In this document: positions 4,682-42,796 of the stretch, piece after piece
Layout: each line of letters opens with the position of its first letter
How positions within the stretch are numbered: position 1 is the first letter of the stretch
NCBI GenBank assembly: GCA_035495555.1
Contig: DATJFQ010000042.1
Coordinates: 75,893 to 139,892 of the forward strand
Reading direction: 5' to 3'
Source of the DNA: Vicinamibacterales bacterium
GTDB taxonomy: Bacteria; Acidobacteriota; Vicinamibacteria; Vicinamibacterales; 2-12-FULL-66-21
DNA length: 64,000 nucleotides
The notes under the pieces: model-generated
Seen by the model: only the letters and a program-made list of their open reading frames with translations
What the model was told of the DNA's origin: nothing
Database searches by the model: none
Position numbers and translations under genes: made by a program

Positions 4682-4697
4682 ACCGCTCGCGAAAGTC

Positions 4698-4777: not shown

Positions 4778-4831
4778 ACGGCCGCCACGATGGCGGCGTC
4801 GTCTTATGAGGCGTATACTGGAAAATCCCTT

Positions 4832-5563: not shown

Positions 5564-5580
5564 GCTACAATCCTCCGGGA

Positions 5581-9677: not shown

Positions 9678-9680
9678 TCG

Positions 9681-10907
9681 ATGCAGTTGCGCCGCCGTCT
9701 CAAGGAATCGCTCGCCCGCCGTGCACGCGGCACGCGTGTGCTGACGCACGCCTGGGCGCGCTACCGCCGGCAGCGCTACGAGCGGCGCATCGCGAAATTC
9801 GTGGAAGCAGGCTCCGGCAGGGCCGACCGCCTGCCGATGGGGGCGGTCTACGAGGCGACGATGCGGTGCAACCTGCACTGTGAGTTCTGCTACGTGGGCG
9901 ACCTGCTGAACATCGAAGGCGAGTGGCGCCAGGAACTCACGCTGGAACAGCTCGAGCGTGCCTTTCCGGCTCGCGAAGACCTGCAGGTGAGCCTCACGGG
10001 CGGCGAGATCTTCATGCGGAAGGATATCCTGTCGGTCCTCGATCTCTTCCGCCGGAAGGGGTATGCCTGCGGCTACCTGACGACGAACGGGACGATCATC
10101 TCCGAGGAGCGCGCGGAAGCGCTGGCGGATCTCGCGGCGCAAGGCTTTCTCAAGCACATCAGCGTATCCGTCGATGGCCCCCGGGAGCTCCACGACGCAG
10201 CTCGCGGCGTGAAAGGCACGTTCGAGCGGACGTGCACGGGATTGCGCCGCCTCCAGCAAGCGGCGCGGCGCAAAGGTGCGCCGCTGCGCGTGTCGATCAA
10301 CACGACGGTGGCGCACGAGAGCCTGGAGGCCCTCGACACGATGGTCGATGTCGCCGAAGAACTCGGTGTCGATGCCATCGGGTTGAACCATCTGATGTTC
10401 AGCACGCCGGAGGAAGTCGCCGAAACGGTGCGATTGACCGGCGCGACTGACGCATCGCAGATCGCGACGTTCGTCACGCCTGATCCGGGACTCGACATCG
10501 CCCGCGTGCGCGCGCAGGTCGGCGCGCTCGAACGGCGGTGCCGCGAGCGCGGCATCCTCTTCGACTATCGCCCGAAGGTGCATCAGCCGCTGGTCGAGAA
10601 CTACTACACGCCGGGCACCCCGATGGCCGGCCGCTGCCTGTATCCGTTCCTCCACGCGCGTGTGTCGTTCTCGGGCAAGGTCTACTTCTGCCCGTTCATC
10701 CGGGTCGAGGTCGGCGATCTGGCCACATCGACGCTCGAAGAGGTCTGGAACGGCGACAAGTTCGTCGATATGCGCAAACGGCTCCTCGACAACGGCCTGT
10801 TTCCGGTGTGCCGCCGCTGCTGCAAGGTGGAACTCGCGCCGGAACCGCTTCCCCGCCCCGCCGTGGCCGCGCCGCGCCGGGCCATCCCGCTCACGGTGGT
10901 GCGCTGA
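9681..10907 (+). CDS. Radical SAM enzyme with SPASM-type C-terminal domain
   Basis: CNLHCEFC radical SAM motif. C-terminal CLYPF...CPFIRVEVGDL...VWNG...CRRCCK. Confidence 0.8.
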   Translation: MQLRRRLKESLARRARGTRVLTHAWARYRRQRYERRIAKFVEAGSGRADRLPMGAVYEATMRCNLHCEFCYVGDLLNIEGEWRQELTLEQLERAFPAREDLQVSLTGGEIFMRKDILSVLDLFRRKGYACGYLTTNGTIISEERAEALADLAAQGFLKHISVSVDGPRELHDAARGVKGTFERTCTGLRRLQQAARRKGAPLRVSINTTVAHESLEALDTMVDVAEELGVDAIGLNHLMFSTPEEVAETVRLTGATDASQIATFVTPDPGLDIARVRAQVGALERRCRERGILFDYRPKVHQPLVENYYTPGTPMAGRCLYPFLHARVSFSGKVYFCPFIRVEVGDLATSTLEEVWNGDKFVDMRKRLLDNGLFPVCRRCCKVELAPEPLPRPAVAAPRRAIPLTVVR

Positions 10908-10909
10908 CG

Positions 10910-12400
10910 ATGCTCGGACGTCGAACGCTGCTCGTCAACCCGCCGCTGGTCAACGGCATCGCGTTCACCCGCCAGGGCCGCTGCCAGGAGCGTGAGGAAG
11001 TGCTCGGCACCACGAAGCCGCCCTACACGCTCGCGGTGATCGCATCACTGCTGCGCCAGAACGGCTGCGACCTGCGTCTGGTGGATCTCACGGCGCAGCG
11101 GCGGACCCCCACTGACCTGATTGCCGACCTCGATGCCGAGGGCTTCATCCCGACGCTCATCCTCTTTCCCAGCACGACGCCAACGCTCGCGGCCGATGTC
11201 GCGGCGATGGCGGCGCTCAAAGCGCGCTACAACGCGCCGATGTTCTGCTTCGGGCCGCACGCCTCGACGACGCCGCAGCAGTCGATGCTGCGCGCTCCCG
11301 ACGTCGACGGCATGTTCGTCGGCGAGCCCGAGGACGCGGCCGTGCAGCTCGCCATGCTCGAATCGATCGACGCGTTGCCCGCCGTGGCGAGCCTCACATG
11401 GCGCCGCGCAGGCACGATTTTCCCCAATACGGCCCACGGCTCGTACGGCGGATTTCTCTCGATGCCGTATCCATCGTGGGATCTGGTACCGCTGAAATCG
11501 TACTCGCTGCCGCTCGTCAATCGGCCATACGTCATCGTCGAAACGAGCCGCGGATGTCCCTACTCCTGCGACTTCTGCGTCGCGCCGATTCATCAGGGCC
11601 ACAAGTTCCGCGAACGCAGCGCAAAGGCGCTCGTCGACGACATCGAGCGAGGCTATCGCGAGTTCGGCATCGACTTCTTCTATCTGTGGGGCGACACGGT
11701 GACGCTCAACGTCAAGAGCTTCACCGCGTTCTGCGACGAGCTCATCGCGCGGAACCTGCCCATCCAGTGGTTCGGAAACGCGCGCGCGGACAACCTCACG
11801 GATCCGGCGTTTGTCCACCGCCTGCGCAAGGCCGGCTGCTGGATGCTCGCGCTCGGCATCGAGACCGAGTCGGAAGACATCCGTAAGAACATGGTGAAGC
11901 GGCTCGAGCGCCAGAAGATTCAGACCGCGTTCCGCAACATGCGCGAGGCGGGGATCAGGTCGTTCGCGTTTTTCATCTTCGGGTACCCCGGCGAGACGAT
12001 CGACACGATGGATCACACCGTCGACTACGCCATCGAACTCGACCCCGATTTCGCGAACTTCTACCCGGCCGTTCCTTATCCCGGCACGGCGCTCTACGCG
12101 AAAGCGGTGCAGGAAGGCTGGCTGGTCGAAGAAGACTGGTCGCGGATGGAGTACTCGTTTTACCTGATGAACGGCAACGGCCTCGACGAACGCGTCGTGT
12201 TCGACGCGATCAATCGCGCCAAGCGCCGGTTCTTTCTGAGGCCGTCCTATGTGGCGCGACGGCTCGGCGACGTCGTGAAGCTGATGGCGACCAAACCCGC
12301 CATCGTGCGGCAGGTGCTCGCACGCGCGATCTTCGGGACGCGAGTGCCGGCGCCGCCGCGTGCTGAAGCCGTCAGCCCTGGCGGCGCGGCCCGAATCTGA
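10910..12400 (+). CDS. B12-binding-domain radical SAM enzyme
   Basis: ATG at 10910 lies 2 nt after the upstream stop. The N-terminal LLVNPP...PPYTLAVIASLL resembles a B12-binding domain. CPYSCDFC radical SAM motif. The track ORF starting at 10538 is over-extended. Confidence 0.75.
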   Translation: MLGRRTLLVNPPLVNGIAFTRQGRCQEREEVLGTTKPPYTLAVIASLLRQNGCDLRLVDLTAQRRTPTDLIADLDAEGFIPTLILFPSTTPTLAADVAAMAALKARYNAPMFCFGPHASTTPQQSMLRAPDVDGMFVGEPEDAAVQLAMLESIDALPAVASLTWRRAGTIFPNTAHGSYGGFLSMPYPSWDLVPLKSYSLPLVNRPYVIVETSRGCPYSCDFCVAPIHQGHKFRERSAKALVDDIERGYREFGIDFFYLWGDTVTLNVKSFTAFCDELIARNLPIQWFGNARADNLTDPAFVHRLRKAGCWMLALGIETESEDIRKNMVKRLERQKIQTAFRNMREAGIRSFAFFIFGYPGETIDTMDHTVDYAIELDPDFANFYPAVPYPGTALYAKAVQEGWLVEEDWSRMEYSFYLMNGNGLDERVVFDAINRAKRRFFLRPSYVARRLGDVVKLMATKPAIVRQVLARAIFGTRVPAPPRAEAVSPGGAARI

Positions 12401-12407
12401 CTCCGTC

Positions 12408-14240
12408 TTACGGCTCGAAGGTGCCGCCGAGGATCAGCGGACTGTCGGGCGGCAGCCAGTTCCCCTGCCTGCAATACCAGCCTGCCACCGGCGCCGTGCC
12501 GCTGCACGTTCCGTCGTTCGTCGATACGATTAACAAGCTGCCTGGCGGCAGCCAGCCGCCGTTCTGACACACCCACCCGGCGCCGGGCTGCACGGACGTG
12601 CAGGAGCTGGTCGTCGTCGTTGTCGTCGTCGTCGTGCTGCCCGGCGGGAGCCAGTTGCCGTTTACGCACGTCCAGCCGGTCCCTGGCTGCACGCTCGTGC
12701 AGGAGCTGGTCGACGAGGTGGTCGTGGTCGTGCTGCCTGGAGGCAGCCAGTTGCCGTTCACGCACGTCCAGCCGGTCCCTGGCTGCACGCTGGTGCAGCT
12801 CCCCGTTGATCCTGTGCCGCCGGTGCTGGTCGTCGGCGGGAGCCATCCACCATTGACGCATGTCCAGCCCGGACCCGGCTGCACGGTCGTGCACCCGCCC
12901 GTCGTGCTGGTCGTTCCGCCGGTCGTCGTGCTCCCTGGCGGCAGCCAGCCGCCATTCACGCACGTCCAGTCCGCTCCGGGTTGAACCGTCGTGCAGCCGC
13001 CGGTCGTTCCCCCTGTTGAACCGCCGCCCGAGGTCGTGCCGCCGCCACCCGTGTAGCTGCCGCCAGGACCGCCACCGGTGGTTCCCGTTTGAAGGACCAC
13101 TTCACCGATCCCCTGGAACTGGGAGAAGTTGGGGGATCCTGAGCCGCGGCTGACGACGGTGAAGAAGCGGGACATCGTGGCGCTGGCAGCGACCCGCGGG
13201 TAGCGGACCGGATTGAAGCCGGTCGAGAGGGTCTGATCCGAGCCGAACCGGACGCCGCTTGCGTTCAGCTCCGCCACATGCAGTTCATCGGATCCGTCGA
13301 TTCCAACGATTGCGGAGGTGCCGCTGTTGCGGTTGTAGGCGATCGCCAGCGCGTCGTAGGACCCGAAGTTCGCGGCCGTGCCAAACCCGATGAGACCGCC
13401 GCTGTTGTCGAACTCCGCCACCTTGGCGTTTCGCGTGCCGGCCACGTCCTGATACCACGCCATGAGGTAATGCTGCGTCGAGGAATTGAACGCCACGTCC
13501 GTCATGAAGGCCTTGGCGCCGGAAAGAGAATTGAAGGCGGTCCGGCGGAACCCGGACGGATTGGATGCGGGAACGATCGCGAGCGCGGATGACAAGCCGT
13601 CGTTATCGCTGATCGAGACGCCGAATTCGTCTCGGACCGAATTCCATGCGACGCTGGGGTTTTCGCCCTGGCCCGCGGAGACGGTCACCGGCCCCGTCAG
13701 CGTGCTTCCGTCCCCCGCGAGGAGCTGAACTTGCGTGATGTGCGTGATCGTCTCGTACGCGACAAGAAACTTTCCGGAGGTTCGCGAGAAATCGATCCCT
13801 GGCCCTCGTTCGCCGTACGGTGATGCGCCCGAAACCGTCATGGTCGTCCCCATCGCACCTGATGGACACGCAATGGTCCGGGCTTTCAGGAGCATTCCGC
13901 TGGTCTGCTCTTCCGGCCAGACGACGAGGAAATTCCCGGCGTTCGGATTGAATCTCGCGCGCGGGAACGAACCGAACGGATGTCCCTGCGCAGGCTTCAT
14001 GAGGACGGTTCCGCTGGCGACACCATCGGAGCCGATGCACTGCGCGTAAATGTAGTCGACCCCGCCGACGATCAGCCCCCCGCCCGACTCGTCGTGCGCG
14101 ACGTCCACGCCTCGGATGAAGGTCGAAAGCGTGGTGAGGGTGTTCACCTTGCTGATTTGCGCAAACGACGGCGCGGACAGCAGGGCCATGGCCCCGATCA
14201 GCATCAGAGTGACGCGGCGAAATTGCACAGGCTGCTCCAT
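12408..14240 (-). CDS. Secreted protein: N-terminal beta-propeller-like region plus six C-terminal Cys-pair mini-domain repeats with Thr/Gly/Ser linkers
   Basis: Signal peptide RRVTLMLIGAMALLSAPSFAQ. Recurrent blade-like motifs (FLVVW, FLVAYE, PSVAWN, YLMAWY). Six copies of C-x4-P-x-x-GW-x-C-x-x-G-x-WLPP. Confidence 0.8.
   Translation of the reverse strand: MEQPVQFRRVTLMLIGAMALLSAPSFAQISKVNTLTTLSTFIRGVDVAHDESGGGLIVGGVDYIYAQCIGSDGVASGTVLMKPAQGHPFGSFPRARFNPNAGNFLVVWPEEQTSGMLLKARTIACPSGAMGTTMTVSGASPYGERGPGIDFSRTSGKFLVAYETITHITQVQLLAGDGSTLTGPVTVSAGQGENPSVAWNSVRDEFGVSISDNDGLSSALAIVPASNPSGFRRTAFNSLSGAKAFMTDVAFNSSTQHYLMAWYQDVAGTRNAKVAEFDNSGGLIGFGTAANFGSYDALAIAYNRNSGTSAIVGIDGSDELHVAELNASGVRFGSDQTLSTGFNPVRYPRVAASATMSRFFTVVSRGSGSPNFSQFQGIGEVVLQTGTTGGGPGGSYTGGGGTTSGGGSTGGTTGGCTTVQPGADWTCVNGGWLPPGSTTTGGTTSTTGGCTTVQPGPGWTCVNGGWLPPTTSTGGTGSTGSCTSVQPGTGWTCVNGNWLPPGSTTTTTSSTSSCTSVQPGTGWTCVNGNWLPPGSTTTTTTTTTSSCTSVQPGAGWVCQNGGWLPPGSLLIVSTNDGTCSGTAPVAGWYCRQGNWLPPDSPLILGGTFEP
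12411..12995 (-). repeat. In-frame tandem coding repeats (six units of about 96-102 bp) within the secreted protein gene
   Basis: Units 12603-12701 and 12702-12797 are near-identical at DNA level (ccagttgccgtt[t/c]acgcacgtccagccggtccctggctgcacgct...). Confidence 0.9.
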
Positions 14241-14435
14241 CTACTCAAACCGCGGACTCGAGTGCCGCGGATTCAGGCGCGTTCCGGTTATCGACAGGTG
14301 GGGAACAGATCTTTAGCCAGGCAGAAGCCTGGACACTCGGACGTCCTGACAGGACCCACATCCAGCCCTGCCATTCGACATCTCCTGGTGACTATAACGG
14401 AGGAAACGCTTCATTTCCAAGCGCAAATTCGTGTG

Positions 14436-15605
14436 TCAGCGGGTCAACGTGAGAATTCTGGCGGCAGCCTGAACTCTGGCGAGTGCATCCCCGCCGTGCA
14501 GCAGTTGCCTGAGTGCCGTGAGGTCGCTGGCCGTCAGCACTTCGGGGAGGGCCCGGGTCGCCATCTCGCGGATGGCAATATTTGGATCCGCCGAAGCCGC
14601 TTCCAGGACGCGCTTTGCGGATTCGGGGTCGTGAGGCGCCAGCAACCGTGCAGCCTGCACCCTGATTTCGGGCTCGGGCGACGACGTCAGGTCCCGCACG
14701 AGCGACATCCACGTGGGGTCGGGCGAGGTGGACATTGCTTCGGCCGCCGCAATCCGGCCGGAGGGGATGTCGCCGGCCGCGAGCTGCTGCAGCAGCGGCA
14801 GGCCGCTCATGTCCCCCAGCCGGAACAAGGCACGGGCGGCGTGCGTCCGGACAAACGCGCTCGAGTCCGAGAGAAGCGTCCTGAGCACGCCGATCTGATC
14901 GTCGGCGTGGAGTTCCGCCAGCGCGTCGGCGACGGACGCACGCACTTCGTCTCGCGGATCGGTCGCCTGCGCCGCGATGGCTGGCAGCGCCGACCGCCGG
15001 CGGCTCTGACCGAGCGCTTCGACGATCCGAGCCTTGTCGGGATTGCCCGCCGCGAGCTGCCCGCTCAGCTCTCGCACCGCCTGCGCGCTTCCGAGCGCCG
15101 CGAGCGTGCGCGTGTTCGCGGGAAGGGTTGACGCCTCCAGGGCCGACACGGCTTCCTGCTGTCCATCCTCCGCAAGCGCCCGCAGCGCTTCGAGGCGCAC
15201 CTGCGTATCCGATTGCTGGCTGCCCGCTTCGTGGAGCACCGCGCTGCCAATCCGCCGCAGCACTGCCGGCTCTTCGTACGGGCGGCTCCCCAACCACTGC
15301 TCGTATTGCGCGATCCCGTTCGACGCCCCCCCGCGCGCGATCGCCGCCTCGACGCCCAGCGACAAGGCTGCCGCGCTCCGCGGATAGCGGACGAGCACCT
15401 CGTTCGCCTTCCGATACGCGTCGTCGACAAGGCCCTGCGACAGCAGAGCCCACCCGTTCGTCAGCAGAATCGCTTCCGTCGAAGCGCTTCCCGGCGCCGG
15501 CTTCTGCTGGTTACGCGTGCGCGACGCGGGCGTCGATTGCGCAGCGGGGGCGGCACCGGCGATGAGAGCCGAAAGCGTAAGGGCGACGCAACCTGACAAC
15601 GTCAT
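14436..15605 (-). CDS. Secreted HEAT/TPR-like repeat protein
   Basis: Start chosen at MTLSGCVALTLSALIAGAAPAAQ (signal peptide). Repeated Ala/Leu-rich helical units with DP..VR motifs typical of HEAT repeats. Confidence 0.6.
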   Translation of the reverse strand: MTLSGCVALTLSALIAGAAPAAQSTPASRTRNQQKPAPGSASTEAILLTNGWALLSQGLVDDAYRKANEVLVRYPRSAAALSLGVEAAIARGGASNGIAQYEQWLGSRPYEEPAVLRRIGSAVLHEAGSQQSDTQVRLEALRALAEDGQQEAVSALEASTLPANTRTLAALGSAQAVRELSGQLAAGNPDKARIVEALGQSRRRSALPAIAAQATDPRDEVRASVADALAELHADDQIGVLRTLLSDSSAFVRTHAARALFRLGDMSGLPLLQQLAAGDIPSGRIAAAEAMSTSPDPTWMSLVRDLTSSPEPEIRVQAARLLAPHDPESAKRVLEAASADPNIAIREMATRALPEVLTASDLTALRQLLHGGDALARVQAAARILTLTR

Positions 15606-15636
15606 GTGGTACGAGTTCAGACGACTGCGGCGGCAA

Positions 15637-16395
15637 TCAGGCCGGTGACAGCCGCCGGTATTCGCGGCGCGCGCGATGCCGCTCGCGCCATCGCACGCGG
15701 TACAAGCTGCGCAATTGCAGCAGATAGCCGAGCGCTTCACGGGTGCTCATCTTGCTCTCGCCGGCCTCGCGATCGTCGAAGCGATACGGCACTTCGACCA
15801 GGCGATGCGGCCACGCGCGCACGATCAGCTCGAGACAGATTTTGAAGCCGCCGGCGTGGATCTGCACCCCTTCCGCAACTTCGCGGCGCAGCAGAAAAAA
15901 GCCCGATGCGGCGTCACGAATCGGCGACAGCGGCCGTGCGAGCAGGCACGCGGCCCGTGAGAGCACCTTGCGGCGGAGCGGCCAGTCCGGCGTGCTGCCG
16001 CCGGGCACGTATCGGCTGGCGACGACGAGATCGGCCCCCGTCGCACGCTGCGCCGCAAGGAGTTTCGGCACGAGGGACGGCGGGTGGCTGAAATCGGCAT
16101 CCATGACGCCCAGAATCGGCGCGGCCGCCACGTCGAATCCCGCTACGACGGCGGTGCCGAGCCCGAGCTTTCCCGTCCGATGGACGACCCGAATGCGTCG
16201 GGTGCGGGCGAGATCGTCCGCCAGCGCACCAGTGCCGTCGGGTGAGTTGTCGTCGACGATGACGAGTTCGAGATCGAGCCCGGCGTCACGGGTGACGGAA
16301 AAGAGGGCATCGACGAGCTCGCCCAGGCGCTCACGCTCGTTATAGGTTGGAATGACGATCGTCAGGTCCGGCGCGCCCGGCGTCGGAGAAGGCAC
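15637..16395 (-). CDS. Polyprenyl-phosphate mannose (or related hexose) synthase, GT2 Dpm1/Ppm1-like
   Basis: LTIVIPTYNERERL, VIVDDNSPDGTG, VMDADFSHPP and ASRYVPGGS motifs match the DPM1/Ppm1 family. GTG start. Confidence 0.8.
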   Translation of the reverse strand: MPSPTPGAPDLTIVIPTYNERERLGELVDALFSVTRDAGLDLELVIVDDNSPDGTGALADDLARTRRIRVVHRTGKLGLGTAVVAGFDVAAAPILGVMDADFSHPPSLVPKLLAAQRATGADLVVASRYVPGGSTPDWPLRRKVLSRAACLLARPLSPIRDAASGFFLLRREVAEGVQIHAGGFKICLELIVRAWPHRLVEVPYRFDDREAGESKMSTREALGYLLQLRSLYRVRWRERHRARREYRRLSPA

Positions 16396-16430
16396 GACGT
16401 ACTATAATTCATGCGCCCGCACCACTCTGC

Positions 16431-18104
16431 ATGACCGCGCGCGCCCGTTCGTTCGTTCCAGTGCTGCTCGCGCTCGTGGCTTTGGGCGCGGTGCTCCGCA
16501 CGGCGTGGCTTCGCGCCGACCCGCCATGGTTTCCCACCGTCGGCATTATCTGGCATGACGAAGGCGCGTGGGTGCACAACGCACGCAACAAGGCGTTGTT
16601 CGGCGCCTGGCGGGAGGACGAATGGAATCCGATGTACGTGGCGCCGGTGTTCACGGTCGCCGAGTACGCCTCGTTCAGCGCCTTCGGCGTCGGCACGTGG
16701 CAGGCGCGCCTCGTGTCCGCCGTGGCGGGGACGATATCGATTGCGCTGCTCGCGCTCGGCGTGCGCCGGCTCGCCGGGACGTCGGCGGGCGCTATCGCCG
16801 CAGCGCTCCTGGCGACGGATTACGTTTACGTCATGTACGACCGCGCCGCGATCATGGAGGCGCTGATGGTCGCGTGCATCGTTGCCGCCTGGTGGGCGTC
16901 GACGAGGGCGGAAGACCGACCGGAATGGGGTGCGCTGGCAGGCGTGTTGGCGGCGGCCGCGTACTTCACGAAGGCGGCTGCAGCGTTCTACGTAGCCGCG
17001 CTCGCGATTGCCGCTGCGTGGAGTCTCCTTCGCCCGCGCGTCAGCCACGAACGAAAAGCCGCGGTGTGGACGATCGCGGGCCTGGCGGTGGCGTTCGGCG
17101 CTGCAGCCCTCTTGTTCGTGCTGCCGCACTGGACGGACTATCGCTTCTACAACTGGCAAATGTCGGTCACCCGGAAACCGTCGTACGATCTCCGGTCGAT
17201 CGTGACGCGAGTGTCCTGGTTCCCGATTCTCCACGATCAGTTCTCGCGCACGTGGCTGATCGTAGTTGTCGGCACCTTGGGCGGGTGGTCGATCCTGGTC
17301 CGATGGGCGCGGGCGCTGACGTCCGAACGCCTGCTGCTGCTGTGGCTGGCCGTCGGAATCGCCGAGCTGCTGGTGCACGACGTCGGCAACGAACGGCGGT
17401 TCGTGTTCCTGATCCCGGTGCTCATCGCGATCACCGCGATCGTGCTCGCGCGAGGCAAGGGCCTGCTCCCGGAAGACGTCCGCCTCGTCTCCTCGAAGAC
17501 GGTGTGGCTGCTGTCGCCCGCCATTCTCTACAGCGCGTACATCGTCTGCGGACCCGTCGCACGGCTTGCGTTCATTTACGAGGTGAAGGAGGAAGCGCGG
17601 CTCTCCGGGATTCTTGGAGTGGCGCTGGGGCTGGTGGTGCTCGTATTCTGGGAACGGCTCGCCGTATGGCTCAGCGCGGGCCGCTGGTCCACCCGGGTTG
17701 CGGCCGCCCTCACCGCGGCGCTCGTTGGCGCAAACCTCGTCGAGTTCACGCAGTACGCCATGCGGCGCACCTACAAGAACTATTACGCGTCGGTGGAACT
17801 CGGGCGGGTGCTCCCGCCAGGCACTGAAGTGCAGGGAAAACTCGCGAACGGGCTCGCGCTCGAGAATGGCATCCGTCCCATCTTCATCGGCCACGGTTTC
17901 GGGAACTTCGCGGACCGGAAGCGGCGCGAAGATGTGCGGTATATTTTGACGTATACAGCGCCAGCGCTCGGCTACGAAGGGTCCCAAATCGAGGATGTGC
18001 TCGCCGCATATCCGGGCTGGCGGGTCATCATGAGCTTCGACGTCGCAGAGACTCCGTCCGGACACGATCGCGCCGCATTGATCGACAAGCGTGCGGGTCA
18101 TTGA
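16431..18104 (+). CDS. GT-C membrane glycosyltransferase, GT39/ArnT-PMT-like
   Basis: LRTAWLRADPPWFPTVGIIWHDEGAWVHNARN carries the DE loop motif. It has more than 10 TM segments. It is divergent from the Dpm1-like gene across 35 bp. Confidence 0.7.
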   Translation: MTARARSFVPVLLALVALGAVLRTAWLRADPPWFPTVGIIWHDEGAWVHNARNKALFGAWREDEWNPMYVAPVFTVAEYASFSAFGVGTWQARLVSAVAGTISIALLALGVRRLAGTSAGAIAAALLATDYVYVMYDRAAIMEALMVACIVAAWWASTRAEDRPEWGALAGVLAAAAYFTKAAAAFYVAALAIAAAWSLLRPRVSHERKAAVWTIAGLAVAFGAAALLFVLPHWTDYRFYNWQMSVTRKPSYDLRSIVTRVSWFPILHDQFSRTWLIVVVGTLGGWSILVRWARALTSERLLLLWLAVGIAELLVHDVGNERRFVFLIPVLIAITAIVLARGKGLLPEDVRLVSSKTVWLLSPAILYSAYIVCGPVARLAFIYEVKEEARLSGILGVALGLVVLVFWERLAVWLSAGRWSTRVAAALTAALVGANLVEFTQYAMRRTYKNYYASVELGRVLPPGTEVQGKLANGLALENGIRPIFIGHGFGNFADRKRREDVRYILTYTAPALGYEGSQIEDVLAAYPGWRVIMSFDVAETPSGHDRAALIDKRAGH

Positions 18105-18936
18105 CGAACGCGCCATCAAGGCGCACGCGGATCTGCGTTTCCGCTCCGAATACGATTACGCGCTGTTCGAGTACTACCGCAGCGCCAAGGTGATCGCCTT
18201 TCTCGAACGCGCCGGCGTTCGCCTGCATGGCGCGGTGCTCGACGCCGGGTGCGGCGGCGGGGGCATGCCGCTCTCGCTCGCCGAAGAGGCGGGCCCGGTG
18301 GTCGGCATCGATCCGATCAACCGGTTCGGCGACGCAGGCGTTCGGCTTGCGGCGGAGCGCGGGCTCACGAACCTGCATTTCGCGCTCGCGGACGGCATGC
18401 AGTTGCCGTTCCCGAAGGGTGTCTTCGATCTCGTGCTGTCGCACGCGGTGATCGAGCATGTGGCTGACGCGCCTCTGTATCTGCGCGAGTGCGCGCGCGT
18501 CCTCGCGCCGGCTGGACGCATCTATCTGTCGACGGCGCCGTATCTGTCGTTCGCGGGCGCTCACCTGCCGAGGCTGAAAGTGCCGGTGCCGCTGCATCTC
18601 CTCGTGGGCCGCCGGCTGGCGTTCAGCACCTTCCGCGCGCTGGCGCGGCACGCCACGTGGGCCTTGCGCGAGCCGGCAAACGAAAATTCGTTCATCAAGC
18701 TCGCCCGTCGCGGGGAAAGCAAGGAAGACGACCTGCTCGAAAAGGTGCGCGTCGCGCGTTTGCGGCGGCAGATCGCGGGCGCGGGACTGCGGATCGTCCG
18801 GGAGGAGCTGAACGTCACGGCGACGGTTCGTCGGCTGCCGGCCGCGCTCGCGCGGGCCGTACAGAACAGCCGTTTGATTCAGGACGTGTTCATCAGCAGC
18901 ATGGAATACGTTTTGGCTCATAAGGCACCCGCCTGA
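18091..18936 (+). CDS. Class I SAM-dependent methyltransferase
   Basis: VLDAGCGGGG motif I, plus FDLVLSHAVIEHV and LAPAGRIYLS. Confidence 0.75.
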   Translation: MRVIDERAIKAHADLRFRSEYDYALFEYYRSAKVIAFLERAGVRLHGAVLDAGCGGGGMPLSLAEEAGPVVGIDPINRFGDAGVRLAAERGLTNLHFALADGMQLPFPKGVFDLVLSHAVIEHVADAPLYLRECARVLAPAGRIYLSTAPYLSFAGAHLPRLKVPVPLHLLVGRRLAFSTFRALARHATWALREPANENSFIKLARRGESKEDDLLEKVRVARLRRQIAGAGLRIVREELNVTATVRRLPAALARAVQNSRLIQDVFISSMEYVLAHKAPA

Positions 18937-18937
18937 T

Positions 18938-19981
18938 ATGGCCGACGTCACCCGATACCGCCCGGACGACCGACGCGCCGTCGAAGCGCTCTACCGCCGC
19001 GTCTTCGGCAACGACGCCGCCGAGAGCAGCCGTCTGCGCTGGGAATGGCAGTACCGGCGCAATCCCAACAATCCTGGCGGCGAGCCCGAAATCTGGATCG
19101 CGCGCGAGGGCACGGCGCTCGTCGGCCAATACGCGACCATGCCGGTCAAGCTCTCGGTCAAGGGCGACGAGATCAAGGGGTCCTGGGGGATGGACGTCAT
19201 GGTCGCGCCGGAACGCCAGCGCCAGGGCCTGGGCGAGGTGCTGTTCCGCACGTGGGACCGCAACGTCGGCGCGTCGCTCGGCCTGGGACTGTCCGACGCC
19301 TCGTACCGGCTGTTCCAGAAGCTGCGCTGGCCCGACGTCGGTCCGATCCCGTGCCTCGTCAAGCCGTTGTCAAGGCGCGCGTTCCGCCATCCCCGCTGGC
19401 CGACAGCCATCAATCGCCTCATCTCCGCCGTGACCTTTCCTGTCGTGCTGCTGGTGGCGCGCAGCCGTCCACTGCGCGCGGAGGTGCGGCTCGTGCCCCG
19501 ATTCGACGACAGCTTCACGGAGCTGTGGGACGCGCTCGCTCCACGCTTCGACGTAGCCGTCCGCCGCGACGCCGCATATCTGAACTGGAAGTTCGCGACG
19601 GCACCGCACGTGCGCTATACGATGGCGGCGTTGCTGCGGCAGGGAAAAGTCGCCGGGTATGCGGTGTACCGGCACGTCCACGAACCGCGCGGCCGAGTCA
19701 CACTGCTGGTCGATTTCCTGACGGATCCGGACGACGAGAACGGGTTCACGACGCTGCTCCGCTGGGTGGACCGCGAAGCGCGCGAGGCGGACTCCGACAA
19801 GATCCGCGTCTTCGCGCTCCACGCCGCGTTCCGGCGGCTGCTCAAGAAATCCGGGTACTTTCAGGTGAAGTCCACGATGGAGTTCGTCATCAAGGTGAAC
19901 GACGCAGAAGTACCGCACGACTTTTACGAGAACACCGACGGATGGCACGTAACGCTGGGCGACTCGGATCAGGATCGGTAG
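18938..19981 (+). CDS. GNAT-family acetyltransferase
   Basis: VMVAPERQRQGLGEVLF acetyl-CoA binding motif (Q/R-x-x-G-x-G). 347 aa. Confidence 0.65.
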   Translation: MADVTRYRPDDRRAVEALYRRVFGNDAAESSRLRWEWQYRRNPNNPGGEPEIWIAREGTALVGQYATMPVKLSVKGDEIKGSWGMDVMVAPERQRQGLGEVLFRTWDRNVGASLGLGLSDASYRLFQKLRWPDVGPIPCLVKPLSRRAFRHPRWPTAINRLISAVTFPVVLLVARSRPLRAEVRLVPRFDDSFTELWDALAPRFDVAVRRDAAYLNWKFATAPHVRYTMAALLRQGKVAGYAVYRHVHEPRGRVTLLVDFLTDPDDENGFTTLLRWVDREAREADSDKIRVFALHAAFRRLLKKSGYFQVKSTMEFVIKVNDAEVPHDFYENTDGWHVTLGDSDQDR

Positions 19982-20010: not shown

Positions 20011-20105
20011 CCCAACGCCCAATTCCCAAGTCCCAAGCTGACCCCAGCCGGAGTGTCAAGAAACTTGGGAGAGAACTTGGAGTTGGAAGTTGGGAGTTGG
20101 GAATT
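20011..20105. repeat. CCAA/TTGG low-complexity dyad element (intergenic hairpin)
   Basis: Left arm cccaacgcccaattcccaagtcccaag. Right arm cttgggagagaacttggagttggaagttgggagttgggaatt. It ends 6 nt before the ATG at 20111. Confidence 0.75.
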
Positions 20106-20110
20106 TCTTG

Positions 20111-21070
20111 ATGCACCTTTTGGTCGGCATCGATACCGAAGGCGACAATCAATGGGACGCGGCCGCGCGCGCGAACCAGCGGTTCGAGAACATCTATGCG
20201 CTGCCCCGGCTGCATGCCTTGTTCGCACGGCACGGTGTGCGGCCGACGTACGTGATCACCTACCCGGTCGCCACGGATCCCGCGTCGGCGGCGGTGCTGC
20301 GCGATCTGCGCGCGGGCGGCGACTGCGAAATCGGCGCTCACCATCACGCGTGGGAGACGCCGCCGTGCACGGCCGGGGACGTCCAGCGGCATCCCTATGC
20401 CGCCAACCTGCCGCTCGAGCAGTTCGAGGCGCAACTTGCGTCCCTCACTGATGCGATTGCCAGCGCCGTCGGCGCGCGGCCTGTGTCGTACCGCTCGGGC
20501 CGATTCGGCTTCGCAGCGGCTCACGTATCGGCCCTCGAGCGTCTCGGGTATCTCGTCGAATCGAGCGTGGCGCCGTTGTTCTACGAAGCGCACAAGCACG
20601 GTCCGGATTTCGTCGAAGCGCCGCTGCGGCCGTATTTTCTCGCATACGACAGCGCGACCGCGCCGGGATCCAGCGGCGTCCTCGAGGTACCGGTGTCGGC
20701 GGCGCTGAATCGTCGCTGGCCGTCCGCGCTGCGGTATCTCTACGCGCGCGCGCCGCGTCCGTACACGACCAGGCGCGTGCTCAAGAAGCTCGGCATTGCC
20801 CGAGTACGCTGGCTGCGCCCGTCGTATTCGTCGCTCGACGACATGATTGCCCTCGCGCGGGACCTGGCGCATGCGGGTGAACCCGTCCTGAATCTGCTGT
20901 TTCATTCGAGCGAAGCGATCGTCGGCGGGAGTCCCTATAACCGCACCGAATCGGAACTGCAGGCGTTCTGCGATCGTCTGGAGCGCTTTTTCGAGTTCGC
21001 GCAACGCGGGTTGAAGGCGGCCCCTGCGACGTTCGCGGAATTCCGCGCCGCGTATCTCGCCACCTCGTGA
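20111..21070 (+). CDS. Polysaccharide deacetylase-like (WalW-like) protein
   Basis: MHLLVGIDTEGDNQWD...PTYVITYPVATD...EIGAHHHAWE pattern. ATG at 20111 is preferred over the track start at 20090, which lies inside an intergenic repeat. Confidence 0.55.
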   Translation: MHLLVGIDTEGDNQWDAAARANQRFENIYALPRLHALFARHGVRPTYVITYPVATDPASAAVLRDLRAGGDCEIGAHHHAWETPPCTAGDVQRHPYAANLPLEQFEAQLASLTDAIASAVGARPVSYRSGRFGFAAAHVSALERLGYLVESSVAPLFYEAHKHGPDFVEAPLRPYFLAYDSATAPGSSGVLEVPVSAALNRRWPSALRYLYARAPRPYTTRRVLKKLGIARVRWLRPSYSSLDDMIALARDLAHAGEPVLNLLFHSSEAIVGGSPYNRTESELQAFCDRLERFFEFAQRGLKAAPATFAEFRAAYLATS

Positions 21071-22203
21071 GAATCCTGCACCTCACGCCGCACCTGCCGC
21101 CGGATCAGGCCGCGAACGCGCTCCTGCCCTATCAACTCGGCGAGTGGGCGGCAGCCCGCGGCGACGCCGTGCAGTACCTCGCGCACCCACCCCGCGCCGG
21201 CGCATCCGCCGCCCTACCGGGAGACGTCACGTGGATGCCGCGCACGCGCGCGGGGCTGGCGCAAAAGCTGATGCGCGCCGGGTCGATCGCGGCTGCCGCG
21301 CGCATCTGGCGCACCGCCGCCCCGCTCGTCGCCGCCGCCGATGTGGTCCACATTCACAGCAACGGGTTGCTTGCCGAGGTCGGCGCACTGGTCGCCGCAC
21401 GGCAGCGGAAGCCGTACGTGTTGACGCTCTACGGCACCGAGATCTGGCACTACCGGCCGAAACGCCGCGTCGATCTGTTCACACGTGCCTACCGCGGCGC
21501 AAACGCCGTCGTCTTCTACAGCGAACGGCTGTTGCTGCGCGCCCGCGAACTGGCGCTCGGCCGCCCGGATTGCCACGTCATTTATCCGCCGGTTTCGAAC
21601 GCCTTCTCGTTTCACGACTGGGTGACACAACAGGAAGAGCGCCTGCGGCTGGGCCTCACGGCGCGGCACGTGATCGTGAACGTCAAGCGGCTGCACCCGC
21701 TCGCCGGGCAGCGATTCCTGATCGAAGCAATGGGCGAGGTGATCCGGGAGCATCCGGACGCGCGCCTGATCATCTGCGGGACCGGCGATTTGCTCTCGGA
21801 GCTGCAGCACGTCGCGCGCGCCGCCGGTGTCGAACGTCACGTCACCTTTGCCGGCCTGGTCGACAACACGATGGTCGCAAAATACTGCGCGGCGGCCGAT
21901 CTGTTCGTCCTGCCGTCGTTGCTCGAGGCGCTCCCGACCGTCGCGGTCGAGGCGCTCGCGTCGGGGACGCCGGTCCTGTCGAGCGACAATCCCGGCGGCC
22001 TCGAACTGAACGATGTCTTCGGCAGCGACGTCGAGGTCGTCCCGCGGGAAGACTGGCTCGCGCTCGCCGACGCGATCCGCTCGAAACTCCGCAACAAACG
22101 GCGGACGATGAGCGCGACGGCGGACGTGATCGCGGCGCGGTTCCGCCCTGATGCCGTCGCGCGCCAGTATTGGGACGTGTACGATGGTGTGAGGAGGAAG
22201 TAG
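21067..22203 (+). CDS. GT4-family (GT-B) glycosyltransferase
   Basis: MRILHLTPHLPPD N-terminus. C-terminal LFVLPSLLEALPTVAVEALASGTPVLSSD (E-x7-E region). GTGA overlap with the upstream gene. Confidence 0.8.
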   Translation: MRILHLTPHLPPDQAANALLPYQLGEWAAARGDAVQYLAHPPRAGASAALPGDVTWMPRTRAGLAQKLMRAGSIAAAARIWRTAAPLVAAADVVHIHSNGLLAEVGALVAARQRKPYVLTLYGTEIWHYRPKRRVDLFTRAYRGANAVVFYSERLLLRARELALGRPDCHVIYPPVSNAFSFHDWVTQQEERLRLGLTARHVIVNVKRLHPLAGQRFLIEAMGEVIREHPDARLIICGTGDLLSELQHVARAAGVERHVTFAGLVDNTMVAKYCAAADLFVLPSLLEALPTVAVEALASGTPVLSSDNPGGLELNDVFGSDVEVVPREDWLALADAIRSKLRNKRRTMSATADVIAARFRPDAVARQYWDVYDGVRRK

Positions 22204-23657: not shown

Positions 23658-23719
23658 GCAACTGCCAACTACCAACGACGCAAGGAACCTTGCGTAGGCA
23701 ATTGTGGAGTTGGCAATTG
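23658..23719. repeat. CCAA/TTGG low-complexity dyad element with a central perfect palindrome
   Basis: gcaactgccaactaccaacg / acgcaaggaaccttgcgt / aggcaattgtggagttggcaattg. Confidence 0.75.
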
Positions 23720-25072
23720 TCACTGAGACGCGTTCTTCTCTCGATCGCCTTCCTGGCCGGCCTCGCGGTGCACCTCGTCACGTTGACGATGCCCGGGACC
23801 GACGATGTGATGGTCTGGAAGACGTGGAGCTATGGCGCCGCGACCGACCTCACGTCGATGTACGGCGTGGGCGGGACGCCCCCGCACCGCGGTGTCGTCA
23901 AGTGGCACACCAGAAGCACCACCGTCGATTACCCTCCCGGTACGTTGTACCTCCTTGGAATCGTTGGACGGGCATACCGAGCAACCTCGCCATCGTTCGA
24001 TGACTCCGCCGCGCTGACAGCCACGCTCAAGCTGTTCACGCTCGCCTTCGATGCCGCGACAGCGATCTTCCTCTGGGCGCTGGCGCGGCGGTATGTCGAC
24101 GGGCCAGCCGCTGCCGCGGCCGCGCTTGGGTACTGGGTGAATCCGGCGACGCTCCTTGACGGCTCAGTGCTTGGTTATCTGGATCCCTGGATGGCTGCCC
24201 CCGCGGTTGCTGCCCTCCTTGCCGCCGATGCGGGAATGTCGCTCGTCGCAGGGGCGCTGCTGGCGGCGGCCGTGCTGATCAAAGCACAAGCAATCTTCGT
24301 CGCGCCCGTCGTCGCACTCCTGCTCGTTCAGGCGTCGGGACGCCCGTGGCGGAGCGCACTGCTCGGGGTCCTCGGGTTCGGAGTCATCGCGGCCGGCGCA
24401 CTCTGGCCATTTGCGTCACGCGGCGCGCTCCCCAACGTTGCGCAGGGCGTCACCGCGCTGCTGCATCACGACATGCTGTCGGGCACCGCGGCCAATGTGT
24501 GGTGGCTCCTCACGTGGGTGCTGCGCGCAGCCTATGCGGTCCACGACCTCGGGCGCTGGGCAGCCTGGACGATGACGGTGAAAATTCTCGCGATTTCGAG
24601 GGTGGTGGCGCTGGGGTATCCGAATCCGCGGCCGGTCGCGCTCGCGCTGGTGCTGCTCGCGAGCGCCTGGGCCCTTTTCCGCGCGCACGGTGCGGCGAGC
24701 CGCGGGGCCTCGTCTGCCGTCCTCGTCGCCGCCGGCGCATTCGCGGTGCACGCGTACTTCACGCTTGGCGTCCAGGTGCATGAGAACCATCTGTTCCTGG
24801 CGGTTCCACTGCTCGCCGTCTGCGCGGTTGTGCTGCCCGGGTACCGCGGCGTCCTGCTGAGCGTCAGCGCGGTCGCCGCGCTGAATCCATTTCTGTTCTA
24901 CGGCGTGGGCCGCGGTTTTCCGCTTCCGTCCCGGCACTGGACGGTCGTCGATACGACCGTCATCCTTGCGGCATTCAACGTCGTCGCGCTCTGGTGGCAC
25001 GCGATGACGCTCAGCGACACCTGCGATCGAGCCTCGCGCGCGGCGAGTGCGGCCGGCTATTTGTGGAAGTAA
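23690..25072 (+). CDS. Polytopic membrane protein, GT-C-like (ALG6/8- or GT87/DUF2029-like) putative glycosyltransferase. The start is uncertain (TTG 23690 or TTG 23717).
   Basis: VDYPPGTLYLLG loop motif and about 10 or more TM segments. The first 9 codons of the track ORF lie inside an intergenic dyad repeat. Confidence 0.45.
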   Translation: MRRQLWSWQLSLRRVLLSIAFLAGLAVHLVTLTMPGTDDVMVWKTWSYGAATDLTSMYGVGGTPPHRGVVKWHTRSTTVDYPPGTLYLLGIVGRAYRATSPSFDDSAALTATLKLFTLAFDAATAIFLWALARRYVDGPAAAAAALGYWVNPATLLDGSVLGYLDPWMAAPAVAALLAADAGMSLVAGALLAAAVLIKAQAIFVAPVVALLLVQASGRPWRSALLGVLGFGVIAAGALWPFASRGALPNVAQGVTALLHHDMLSGTAANVWWLLTWVLRAAYAVHDLGRWAAWTMTVKILAISRVVALGYPNPRPVALALVLLASAWALFRAHGAASRGASSAVLVAAGAFAVHAYFTLGVQVHENHLFLAVPLLAVCAVVLPGYRGVLLSVSAVAALNPFLFYGVGRGFPLPSRHWTVVDTTVILAAFNVVALWWHAMTLSDTCDRASRAASAAGYLWK

Positions 25073-42795: not shown

Positions 42796-42796
42796 G

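Follow-up and report, generated by a model that had tools for sequence, protein, structure and literature searches.

A polyprenyl-phosphate-mannose synthase and a divergent ArnT-like GT-C enzyme in a conserved sugar-polymer gene cluster of Vicinamibacteria: a possible envelope-glycan mannosylation module

The gene pair and its cluster

The window, that is, the whole stretch of 64,000 nucleotides that was analysed, encodes two glycosyltransferases that diverge from a short spacer:

15637-16395, minus strand: GT2 polyprenyl-phosphate-mannose synthase, DPM1/Ppm1 type, 252 aa (PF00535, PfDPMS match)
16396-16430: divergent spacer of 35 bp, read from the sequence
16431-18104, plus strand: ArnT-like GT-C glycosyltransferase (GT-C 2), 557 aa (PMT_2, profile, AF2, Foldseek)

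An earlier note on this DNA had described the pair by five motifs, and all of these, both open reading frames and the spacer are present as it stated. The GT2 carries IPTYNE at aa 15-20 (nt 16336-16353), DDNSPDGT at aa 48-55, DADFSHPP at aa 99-106 and SRYVPGGS at aa 127-134, and GT-C 2 carries IIWHDEGAW at aa 39-47 (nt 16545-16571). Both frames have a coding-like GC3 of 0.79-0.82 and thousands of homologs each. A perfect TATAAT lies in the spacer on the plus strand (16403-16408); a promoter scan reported no full two-hexamer promoter within these 35 bp. Further genes of the cluster around the pair are:

110-1360, plus strand: surface-carbohydrate biosynthesis protein
about 1372-2718, plus strand: 448-aa polytopic membrane protein, weak match to the LA_3751/LA_3752 putative glycosyltransferase family
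2744-3706, plus strand: SDR nucleotide-sugar enzyme (Epimerase, E=1e-58)
3722-4681, plus strand: radical SAM/SPASM enzyme
4769-5563, plus strand: signal-anchored protein with a Pro/Thr/Gly-rich tail
5581-6288, plus strand: methyltransferase
6298-7950, plus strand: Wzx/MOP-type polysaccharide flippase (Polysacc_synt; HfsF-like, E=2e-18)
7947-9677, plus strand: GT-C 1 with its own loop-1 DE (PMT_2, E=8e-11; weak PMT match, E=4e-5)
9681-10907, plus strand: radical SAM/SPASM enzyme
10910-12400, plus strand: B12-binding radical SAM enzyme, class B (HpnJ/BchE-like, well below cut-offs)
18091-18936, plus strand: SAM-dependent methyltransferase (Methyltransf_11, E=1e-19)
18938-19981, plus strand: GNAT-type acyltransferase (Acetyltransf_9, E=8e-10)
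20090-21070, plus strand: CE4-like polysaccharide deacetylase without signal peptide (PF01522, E=2e-6, above cut-off)
21067-22203, plus strand: GT4 glycosyltransferase (Glycos_transf_1, E=3e-29)
23690-25072, plus strand: 460-aa polytopic membrane protein, no Pfam or NCBIfam match

The start of the SAM-dependent methyltransferase overlaps the stop of GT-C 2 by 14 nt, and the GT4 start overlaps the deacetylase stop; from overlapping or abutting codons, the whole series of GT-C 2, methyltransferase, GNAT, deacetylase and GT4 is predicted to be translationally coupled. GT-C 1 aligns with GT-C 2 by hhalign over the first 190 aa or so (probability 71%, E=4e-5) and is apparently a distant paralog, the only detectable one. 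In some 11 loci the 460-aa membrane protein is syntenic downstream of a rhomboid gene, and it may be another GT-C-like enzyme; hhalign of this protein and of the 448-aa protein to the GT-C 2 profile was not significant, and neither is counted as a GT-C here. PDB searches with the deacetylase, the GNAT and GT-C 1 returned nothing informative. The SDR is most similar to UDP-4-keto-pentose/UDP-xylose synthases and is ArnA decarboxylase-like (NF008872, 177 bits versus a cut-off of 294). In comparison with the Arn gene set, the window contains this enzyme and the CE4 deacetylase, which is of the same Pfam family as ArnD, and no aminotransferase, formyltransferase, ArnC-type GT2 or ArnE/F was found in it. 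Likewise, the window contains no priming phosphoglycosyltransferase, Wzy polymerase or O-antigen ligase. A hopanoid role for the B12-binding radical SAM enzyme was discarded, as HpnJ and BchE scored equally, both far below cut-offs, and there were no other hpn matches; the similarity is taken to be generic for class B. The same applies to a role of the SPASM enzymes as RiPP or protein maturases: there was no evidence for a precursor-like small ORF, and enzymes of these types are also found in the sugar clusters of distant relatives.

The synthase and its ArnT-like partner

The GT2 contains PF00535 (E=3e-33) and matches the Pyrococcus Dol-P-Man synthase PfDPMS (5mlz) over aa 11-236 with an E-value of 2.4e-53, while ArnC-type enzymes are far weaker matches (1e-16) and the PgfS model reaches 63 bits against a cut-off of 500. 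We compared the DAD metal/diphosphate motif, the guanine-recognising Asp39, the mannose contacts D89, H94, R117 and K178, and the Dol-P phosphate site formed by R117, R131 and S135. Of the 17 residues that contact GDP-mannose, metal or polyprenyl phosphate, 16 are conserved (Y10, E12, D39 for guanine, R63, G68, L69, D89, D91, H94, R117, R131, S135, F177, K178, R202, K208), and the sole change is Q93 to Ser (DADFSH). An identical protein from a Vicinamibacterales MAG (P0271) bears the PGAP name 'polyprenol monophosphomannose synthase'. The PfDPMS match and the functional residues thus bear out the assignment to the DPM1/Ppm1 type, and the predicted activity of the enzyme is very probably the loading of mannose onto a lipid carrier. 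It consists of the catalytic domain and interface helices without a TM domain, the chain ending at aa 252, and no Lnt/Ppm2-like membrane partner was found among the genes of the window.

For GT-C 2, the AF2 model (pLDDT 90) has a GT-C fold with about 13 TM helices, loop-1 juxtamembrane helices and a C-terminal periplasmic alpha/beta domain (aa ~449-557), which is the ArnT-type architecture. IIWHDEGAW is located in loop 1, between TM1 (aa 3-24) and TM2 (aa 72-85). Among 22 sequences of the family, D30, E44, R52, N53, R93 and K181 are invariant and D43 is present in at least 90%. The model, the Foldseek comparison and this conservation confirm a GT-C fold and a loop-1 D-E pair for the partner enzyme. 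However, D43-E44 aligns to the PDEG of ArnT, so the DE pair does not discriminate a PMT from an ArnT.

The earlier note had also called this enzyme GT39/PMT-like, which is contradicted by domain content, topology, profile similarity and fold. PMTs are defined by PF02366 and PF16192 modules that form an 11-TM core (PMC12331936). The only Pfam domain in GT-C 2 is the generic PMT_2 (PF13231, E=6e-16); PF02366 (PMT) and PF16192 (PMT_4TMC) are absent even at E<=10, and the sequence lacks a WWD-type (WWDYG) peptide-binding motif. The single sequence found no match in the PDB by phmmer at E<=1, and only the 22-sequence profile reached ArnT and PMTs there, ArnT with E=3.9e-8 (35.7 bits) over some 400 positions including DEG, and PMTs with E~1e-5 (27 bits) over only about 140 positions. 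In Foldseek, ArnT (5ezm) had the best reciprocal TM-score (0.56/0.58) at 14-16% identity, STT3 scored 0.54, PMTs ranked 23 or lower (0.32-0.43), and PimE (9dm5) gave a TM of 0.37 with E=0.025. By profile and modelled fold, GT-C 2 thus appears nearer to ArnT and STT3 than to PMTs; its similarity to STT3 reflects the shared GT-C core. Since no curated NCBIfam family, ArnT models included, was reached at E<=0.01, we regard GT-C 2 as a member of a divergent ArnT-like family.

Conservation of the cluster and its exported neighbours

Across 80 species of Vicinamibacteria, the gene context shows a conserved unit made up of the GT2 on the opposite strand and of GT-C, methyltransferase, GNAT, CE4 deacetylase and GT4. 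The pairing itself is conserved, as 67 of 73 species loci have a divergent GT2 no more than 3 kb from the GT-C. Of 61 loci, 55 have the methyltransferase downstream of the GT-C, 59 the GNAT, 59 the deacetylase and 58 the GT4. Upstream there are usually a Wzx-like flippase gene, a further GT-C gene and three radical-SAM genes, and the trio of radical SAM/SPASM enzyme, signal-anchored protein and methyltransferase (3722-6288) is syntenic in many related loci. Most relatives also carry a 529-aa protein that matches PMT_2 weakly and a membrane protein of 635 aa whose match to the PTPS_related family is faint and not significant (E=0.12); homologs of these two were not found in this window. Relatives of GT-C 2 with 30-33% identity have methyltransferases, GT4, Wzx, NeuB/CMP-sugar, TagF-like, heptose and B12-rSAM genes as neighbours, and one of them with 30% identity (P0142) is also followed by a methyltransferase. 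In related genomes, the conserved partners are therefore sugar-modifying enzymes, a flippase and further GT-Cs, a result that does not favour a protein glycosylation core.

Two exported proteins are encoded downstream of the synthase on the same strand, as the earlier note had described:

14436-15605, minus strand: exported HEAT-repeat protein, accessory neighbour (HEAT_2, E=1e-21)
12408-14240, minus strand: exported 610-aa beta-propeller/Cys-hairpin protein, accessory neighbour (AF2, tandem repeat)

The HEAT-repeat assignment and secretion of the first protein hold (its signal-peptide-like N-terminus reads MTLSGCVALTLSALIAGAAPAAQ), but its true start is the ATG at 15605, 31 nt past the GT2 stop, and not 15740. 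The second protein also has a signal-peptide-like N-terminus and no Pfam match. Its N-terminal 400 aa form a 7-bladed beta-propeller (AF2, pLDDT 86), whose nearest folds are Photorhabdus fucose lectins and YncE; a function was not assigned from this search, which returned generic 7-blade neighbours only (lectins, YncE, WD40). The long Thr-rich linkers are present, but they separate five to six Cys-hairpin mini-repeats (CT[TS]VQPGxGWxCxNGxWLPP) that follow the propeller, with Thr, Gly and Ser between them; Thr makes up 23% and Gly 21% of the C-terminal third, which includes runs like STTTTTTTTTSS, the gene contains a 96-nt tandem repeat, and a promoter-like site is located between the two genes. 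As substrates of the pathway, a role proposed for them previously, both proteins fit poorly, since they are not conserved partners (HEAT gene in 15, beta-propeller gene in 9 of 60 related loci). Among 13 homologs of the 610-aa protein, only about 6 have Thr/Ser runs, and the Thr-rich character of the linkers is not conserved. Both genes nevertheless recur within the cluster in differing arrangements (in loci L016, L057 and L062), which hints at some functional link.

Possible roles of the pair and comparison with known systems

A polyprenyl-phosphate-sugar synthase combined with a GT-C transferase is a well-known route to glycosylation outside the cytoplasm. We lean towards the view that the pair is a two-step, lipid-carrier-dependent module of this kind, which serves an envelope glycoconjugate rather than protein. 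In the first, well supported step, the soluble or peripheral GT2 would form polyprenyl-P-mannose from GDP-mannose and polyprenyl phosphate at the cytoplasmic face. The product would then reach the periplasmic face, where the 13-TM ArnT-like GT-C would transfer the sugar to a periplasmic acceptor via its loop-1 Asp/Glu site. The fold and motifs of this enzyme are shown by model and sequence, whereas we infer its sugar donor from the adjacency to the GT2; judged from the context, the most likely acceptor is a glycan or lipoglycan, not a protein, that the cluster itself produces. The GT4, CE4 deacetylase, GNAT, methyltransferases and radical-SAM enzymes would build and tailor this product in the cytoplasm, the Wzx-like flippase would export it, and the other GT-C-like enzymes would add further sugars in the periplasm. 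Because the pair lies inside a large conserved sugar-polymer cluster, it more likely decorates an envelope glycan or lipid than the Thr-rich protein. The best reading, which we favour with modest confidence, is thus a module for mannosylation in the periplasm that acts on an envelope glycan, a lipoglycan or LPS. Several observations count against it: the window lacks the priming enzyme, polymerase and ligase named above, the HEAT and beta-propeller genes recur in the cluster, STT3 oligosaccharyltransferases, which act on proteins, match the fold as well as ArnT does, and the cluster encodes exported proteins with Thr- or Pro-rich disordered regions. ArnT-like lipid or glycan modification, mentioned by the earlier note as the alternative, nevertheless fits better than protein O-glycosylation.

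In a strict ArnT/FlmK sense, the GT-C might add a single mannose to lipid A or the inner core, the remaining cluster being functionally separate. ArnT is the best match by sequence profile and reciprocal TM-score and has the same architecture, the family is labelled ArnT-like in sources, and FlmF1/FlmK of Francisella is a precedent. Yet the identity to ArnT is low, no lpx or waa genes were found in the window, and the relatives of GT-C 2 reside in capsule or O-antigen-like clusters and not beside lipid A genes. Moreover, the coupling of the GT-C to the methyltransferase and its conservation with the GNAT, deacetylase and GT4 argue for one pathway, and we consider a role confined to lipid A unlikely.

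Dedicated protein O-mannosylation, with mannose moved by the GT-C from polyprenyl-P-mannose to Ser/Thr in disordered linkers of exported proteins, would have the beta-propeller/Cys-hairpin protein and possibly the P/T/G-tailed protein (4769-5563) as candidate substrates. The synthase is of the PPM type, Thr runs in the exported neighbour reach 12 residues, in roughly a quarter of the species the HEAT and beta-propeller genes have remained with the cluster despite rearrangements, and STT3/PglB-type protein glycosyltransferases are among the top fold neighbours. The conserved loop-1 D-E pair is compatible as well, as GT39 enzymes require the DE motif (PMC11727336). On the other hand, the GT-C has neither the domain architecture nor the 11-TM topology of PMTs, which are weaker matches than ArnT, and no WWD-type motif; the proposed substrate is missing from most loci, and several of its homologs have linkers rich in Pro or Gly rather than Thr; the genes tightly coupled to the GT-C encode sugar-tailoring enzymes, and distant GT-C relatives are found in polysaccharide clusters. 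We judge this role quite improbable.

Finally, the adjacency might be incidental, the GT2 being a general PPM synthase that feeds unrelated GT-Cs while GT-C 2 uses another donor, e.g. a pentose, amino-sugar or oligosaccharide carrier made via the ArnA-like SDR and the deacetylase; a different GT-C-like gene directly adjoins the GT2 in 47 of 67 species and several GT-C-like proteins could share a donor, but the divergent GT2 is kept beside the operon in most species despite rearrangements, and the window contains no second polyprenyl-phosphate glycosyltransferase (ArnC/GtrB type) and no aminotransferase, which makes this explanation very improbable.

To our knowledge, the ArnT-like family of GT-C 2 and its conserved gene set have not been described so far. 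Literature on acidobacterial O-mannosylation and on Vicinamibacter glycolipids yielded nothing specific to this system, nor did that on PPM synthases with ArnT in Gram-negatives, for which Francisella is the precedent. Vicinamibacteria are among the most abundant soil Acidobacteriota, and the gene set (methyltransferase, GNAT, CE4 deacetylase, GT4, flippase, GT-C-like proteins and three radical-SAM enzymes) is near-universal in the loci sampled. A product in the form of an envelope lipoglycan or polysaccharide that contains mannose and is methylated or N-acylated would represent a major surface polymer, so far uncharacterised, in a dominant soil lineage. In that case, a large GT-C family without annotation would also acquire a function. 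Were the acceptor a protein instead, O-mannosylation would extend beyond Actinobacteria and beyond GT39. We doubt strongly that Vicinamibacteria employ a non-GT39 ArnT-like GT-C and a DPM1-type synthase for dedicated O-mannosylation of exported proteins with disordered Thr/Pro-rich linkers, such as the lectin-like beta-propeller/Cys-hairpin protein and the P/T/G-tailed protein; such a use would be an independent origin in a Gram-negative phylum.

Several known systems resemble the one proposed here. In Gtr-type systems (GtrA/GtrB/GtrC; CsbB/YfhO; Pgf of S. mutans), a GT2 loads one sugar onto polyprenyl phosphate, and outside the cytoplasm a GT-C passes this sugar on to a pre-formed polymer, or to a Thr-rich adhesin in the case of Pgf. 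Unlike GtrB, the GT2 described here is of the DPMS type without C-terminal TM helices, and no GtrA-like small flippase was identified. With GT39 PMTs (actinobacterial Pmt, fungal PMT1/2/4) the GT-C shares the fold, the first-loop D-E pair, an expected polyprenyl/dolichyl-P-mannose donor and an exported Thr-rich protein nearby, but it differs from them by the lack of PF02366/PF16192 and by about 13 TM helices with a C-terminal globular domain in place of an 11-TM core. In Francisella, a DPMS-like synthase and an ArnT homolog mannosylate lipid A (PMC2233673). Like FlmF1/FlmK and ArnC/ArnT, our pair combines a DPMS-like polyprenyl-phosphate sugar synthase with an ArnT-family GT-C for periplasmic transfer; ArnT is the nearest solved relative of GT-C 2, although a remote one. 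However, true DPMS is a far closer match to the GT2 (2e-53) than ArnC is, and the GT-C is coupled to a methyltransferase/GNAT/deacetylase/GT4 operon and not to lipid A genes. Mycobacterial Ppm1 feeds several PPM-dependent GT-Cs (PimE, MptA/B/C) of the PIM/LM/LAM pathway. Compared with the Ppm1/PimE system, the host is a Gram-negative acidobacterium, the GT-C is ArnT-like and not PimE-like, a Ppm2/Lnt-like partner was not found, and a CE4 deacetylase, methyltransferases and three radical-SAM enzymes are additional members of the cluster. As in the mycobacterial and corynebacterial Ppm1 systems, though, a DPM1-type GT2 would make polyprenyl-P-mannose for several polytopic outer-face GT-Cs after GT4 enzymes and an acyltransferase have acted at the cytoplasmic face, and the acceptor would be a glycolipid or lipoglycan.

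The gene pair and its cluster

The glycan cluster that holds the gene pair extends from about 110 to about 25,000 of the window (G+C about 66%), and the window outside it carries unrelated housekeeping genes. Along the run from GT-C #2, hereafter the GT-C, to the GT4 gene, neighbouring genes overlap or adjoin at their start and stop codons.

Genes and selected features of the glycan cluster (position in the window, strand, description)
110-1360 (+), surface-carbohydrate protein
~1372-2718 (+), polytopic membrane protein
2744-3706 (+), ArnA-decarboxylase-like SDR
3722-4681 (+), radical SAM/SPASM
4769-5563 (+), signal-anchored protein, P/T/G-rich tail
5581-6288 (+), methyltransferase
6298-7950 (+), Wzx-like flippase
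7947-9677 (+), GT-C #1
9681-10907 (+), radical SAM/SPASM
10910-12400 (+), B12 radical SAM
12408-16395 (-), beta-propeller protein, HEAT protein, GT2
12408-13050 (-), Cys-hairpin repeats, unit ~20 aa; 96-nt tandem repeat, no Pfam family
13041-14240 (-), seven-bladed beta-propeller, N-terminal 400 aa; predicted structure, pLDDT 86
15637-16395 (-), GT2 ORF, 252 aa
16431-22203 (+), GT-C #2, methyltransferase, GNAT, CE4 deacetylase, GT4
16431-18104 (+), GT-C #2 ORF, 557 aa
22207-25072, YqeY, rhomboid, 460-aa membrane protein

The earlier note had read the GT2 and the GT-C as a divergently transcribed candidate protein O-glycosylation pair, with the secreted HEAT and Thr-rich proteins as possible substrates, and its description of the locus was borne out: 35 bp (16396-16430) separate the two start codons, the GT2 motifs are all in place (IPTYNE at aa 15-20, DDNSPDGT at aa 48-55, DADFSHPP at aa 99-106, SRYVPGGS at aa 127-134), the loop-1 motif IIWHDEGAW lies at aa 39-47 of the GT-C, and the HEAT and Thr-rich exported proteins are encoded downstream of GT2 on the same strand. 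The HEAT_2 protein starts with the ATG at 15605, 31 nt past the GT2 stop codon, and its N-terminus is signal-peptide-like. Third-position G+C in both ORFs of the pair is high, as in genuine genes of this genome, and homologs of both are very numerous. A second HEAT_2 protein, with TPR repeats (398 aa; 41623-42819, minus strand), is encoded well away from the cluster; this genome thus does not restrict HEAT-repeat proteins to the glycosylation locus.

The spacer contains a perfect TATAAT (16403-16408, plus strand) 22 nt 5' of the GT-C ATG, a placement that would leave a very short leader, and no obvious Shine-Dalgarno sequence; a two-hexamer promoter scan called no site in these 35 bp. Further along the window, in the region ~29370-33061 (minus strand), 31166-33061 encodes an ArsA/GET3-like double ATPase, and the N-termini of adjacent ORFs look GvpL/GvpF-like. 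In the syntenic locus L004, GvpK and GvpL/GvpF genes are called at 17806-18226, and a gas-vesicle gene cluster probably adjoins the glycan cluster.

The synthase and the transferase

GT2 is a further member of the DPM1/Ppm1 kind. It matches the structure of the Pyrococcus furiosus dolichyl-phosphate mannose synthase (5mlz) over the entire catalytic domain with an E-value of 2.4e-53, compared with 1e-16 at best for ArnC-type enzymes. Taking residue roles from the structural paper on dolichyl-phosphate mannose synthase (PMC5526996) and positions from the alignment to 5mlz, we found 16 of 17 functional residues identical to the P. furiosus enzyme. Kept are Asp39, which reads the guanine; Gly68, Leu69 and the DAD motif; Asp89, His94, Arg117 and Lys178, which contact mannose; Arg131 and Ser135, where the phosphate docks; Phe177, which acts as the gate; and Arg202 and Lys208 of the acceptor loop. 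The sole substitution is Gln93 to Ser. In addition, an identical protein is on record in a Vicinamibacterales (Acidobacteriota) metagenome-assembled genome, where the NCBI pipeline names it 'polyprenol monophosphomannose synthase'. GT2 lacks a TM domain, its chain stopping past the interface helices, and no Ppm2/Lnt-like partner is encoded nearby. Judged from its sequence, the assignment of GT2 as a putative GDP-mannose:polyprenyl-phosphate mannosyltransferase is well supported.

In a 22-sequence alignment of the GT-C family (A1), D30, E44, R52, N53, R93 and K181 are invariant and D43 nearly so; the loop-1 acidic pair D43/E44 proposed earlier is thus conserved, but domains, profile, fold and topology all disagree with the proposed GT39/PMT identity, and the DE pair, which matches the PDEG of ArnT just as well, cannot tell the families apart. 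Pfam recognises the generic PMT_2 alone (E=6e-16), and PF02366 and PF16192, the modules that define PMTs and form their 11-TM core (PMC12331936), are absent even at E<=10. No NCBIfam model was reached, and a PDB search with the single sequence gave no match. The A1 profile, searched against the PDB, aligned about 400 positions including the loop-1 DEG with Cupriavidus ArnT (E=3.9e-8), compared with only about 140 TM positions for yeast and Chaetomium PMTs (E=1e-5 to 3e-4). In the AlphaFold model, which is confident (pLDDT 90, pTM 0.92), there are about 13 TM helices; loop 1 carries short juxtamembrane helices, and aa ~449-557 form an alpha/beta domain at the C-terminus. Foldseek ranked STT3 and ArnT structures at the top, the best reciprocal TM-score being that of ArnT (0.56/0.58), and PMTs appeared at rank 23 or lower (TM 0.32-0.43). 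The architecture matches that of ArnT, no curated ArnT model recognises the protein, and the defining features of GT39 are missing; by profile and predicted fold, the GT-C represents a divergent ArnT-like family without a curated model, not GT39/PMT. By sequence, the window pairs a synthase of the PPM type with a GT-C whose loop-1 acidic site is intact and whose topology is ArnT-like.

Conservation in related loci

Scanning the GTDB species representatives yielded 238 relatives, and the window proteins were mapped onto the best 80 of these. One of the 80, L058, has a record with the label Bifidobacteriaceae; the rest carry Acidobacteriota or Vicinamibacteria labels.

Neighbours of the GT-C among the best 80 of 238 relatives (loci with the feature / loci with enough flank)
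GT2, divergent, <=3 kb upstream of the GT-C: 67/73
methyltransferase downstream of the GT-C: 55/61
GNAT: 59/61
deacetylase: 59/61
GT4: 58/61
B12 radical SAM: 49/60
flippase: 42/60
radical SAM/SPASM (rSAM1): 40/60
GT-C #1: 31/60
HEAT protein: 15/60
beta-propeller protein: 9/60

GT2 lies immediately beside the GT-C, as in the window, in 20 loci, and a gap of 1.3-2.6 kb separates them in 47; in L003, the locus examined, this interval is occupied by a gene (8433-10022) for a 529-aa membrane protein that matches PMT_2 weakly. Many relatives also carry, after GT4, a 635-aa membrane protein (L003 15714-17621) whose one Pfam match, PTPS_related, is faint and non-significant (E=0.12). Most Vicinamibacteria clusters have both of these extra polytopic membrane genes (L003; also L001 4782-6368). 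Both are missing from the window, whose lineage is thus a reduced or rearranged variant with GT2 abutting the GT-C. Four GT-C relatives at 30-34% identity lie beside methyltransferases, a GT4, a Wzx flippase or a second PMT_2 protein, or in a sugar cluster with NeuB/CMP-sugar, TagF-like, heptose, DegT, B12 radical-SAM and SPASM genes.

Three radical-SAM enzymes, two SPASM and one B12-binding, are encoded within the glycan cluster, and in L089 a 32%-identical GT-C relative is accompanied by a similar set with up to three B12 radical-SAM enzymes and one SPASM enzyme. This suggests unusual radical chemistry on the sugar product, e.g. C-methylation or rearrangement.

The acceptor and comparison with known systems

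On the periplasmic face, the GT-C would take polyprenyl-phosphate-mannose made by the neighbouring GT2, and the conserved context points to a non-protein envelope glycoconjugate as acceptor, which the co-conserved enzymes would assemble and tailor and the flippase would export. That the pair serves such a glycoconjugate by way of polyprenyl-phosphate-mannose is, in our view, somewhat probable. Strict mannosylation of lipid A or core by this ArnT-like enzyme seems unlikely.

Protein O-mannosylation, as the earlier note had it, is less likely again, even though the HEAT and beta-propeller pair recurs in the cluster across rearrangements (L016, L057, L062), some exported proteins encoded in the cluster have disordered stretches rich in Thr or Pro, and STT3-type enzymes match the GT-C in fold as well as ArnT does. 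The last ~215 residues of the 610-aa beta-propeller protein (12408-14240) are indeed 23% Thr and 21% Gly, the Thr-rich stretches being linkers between Cys-hairpin units (CT[TS]VQPGxGWxCxNGxWLPP), of which there are five to six. Thr/Ser runs of at least five residues occur in about 6 of 13 homologs; others (e.g. that of L001) have poly-Pro or poly-Gly linkers. Among solved structures the propeller comes closest to fucose-binding lectins of Photorhabdus and to YncE of E. coli, a generic result, and its region has only 21 sequence homologs among 5.8 billion proteins. Based on this predicted fold, the protein could bind glycans instead of serving as a glycosylation substrate. Finally, an incidental adjacency of the two genes, with the GT-C using a different donor, is the least probable reading.

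The Cys-hairpin unit is seen again in relatives with Pro- or Gly-rich, not Thr-rich, linkers (e.g. CTTPDPFVSLGGGTCVNGGWLPPG in L001) and may be an undescribed disulfide-bonded mini-domain. An antisense 128-aa ORF (12598-12984, plus strand) passes a simple GC3 filter and was rejected as an artefact of repetitive, codon-biased Thr/Gly coding on the opposite strand. The 4769-5563 product consists of a small N-terminal domain, a signal anchor and a long disordered Pro/Thr/Gly-rich tail, without a Pfam or NCBIfam match. Synteny of its gene with those for the methyltransferase and the flippase extends to many more related loci than does synteny of the gene for the Thr-rich protein. Should any protein of the cluster be glycosylated, this one is therefore the candidate with the better conservation.

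No description of the conserved gene set was found in the papers searched, and the locus points to a lineage-wide, uncharacterised glycoconjugate of the envelope in a dominant group of soil bacteria. The proposed system, as read from sequence, would operate like known polyprenyl-phosphate-sugar/GT-C modules and is not surprising in principle. The logic resembles that of mycobacteria, where one synthase, Ppm1, supplies several GT-Cs. The scheme of a GT2 feeding an ArnT-like GT-C is likewise similar to that of Francisella FlmF1/FlmK, which add mannose to lipid A (PMC2233673).
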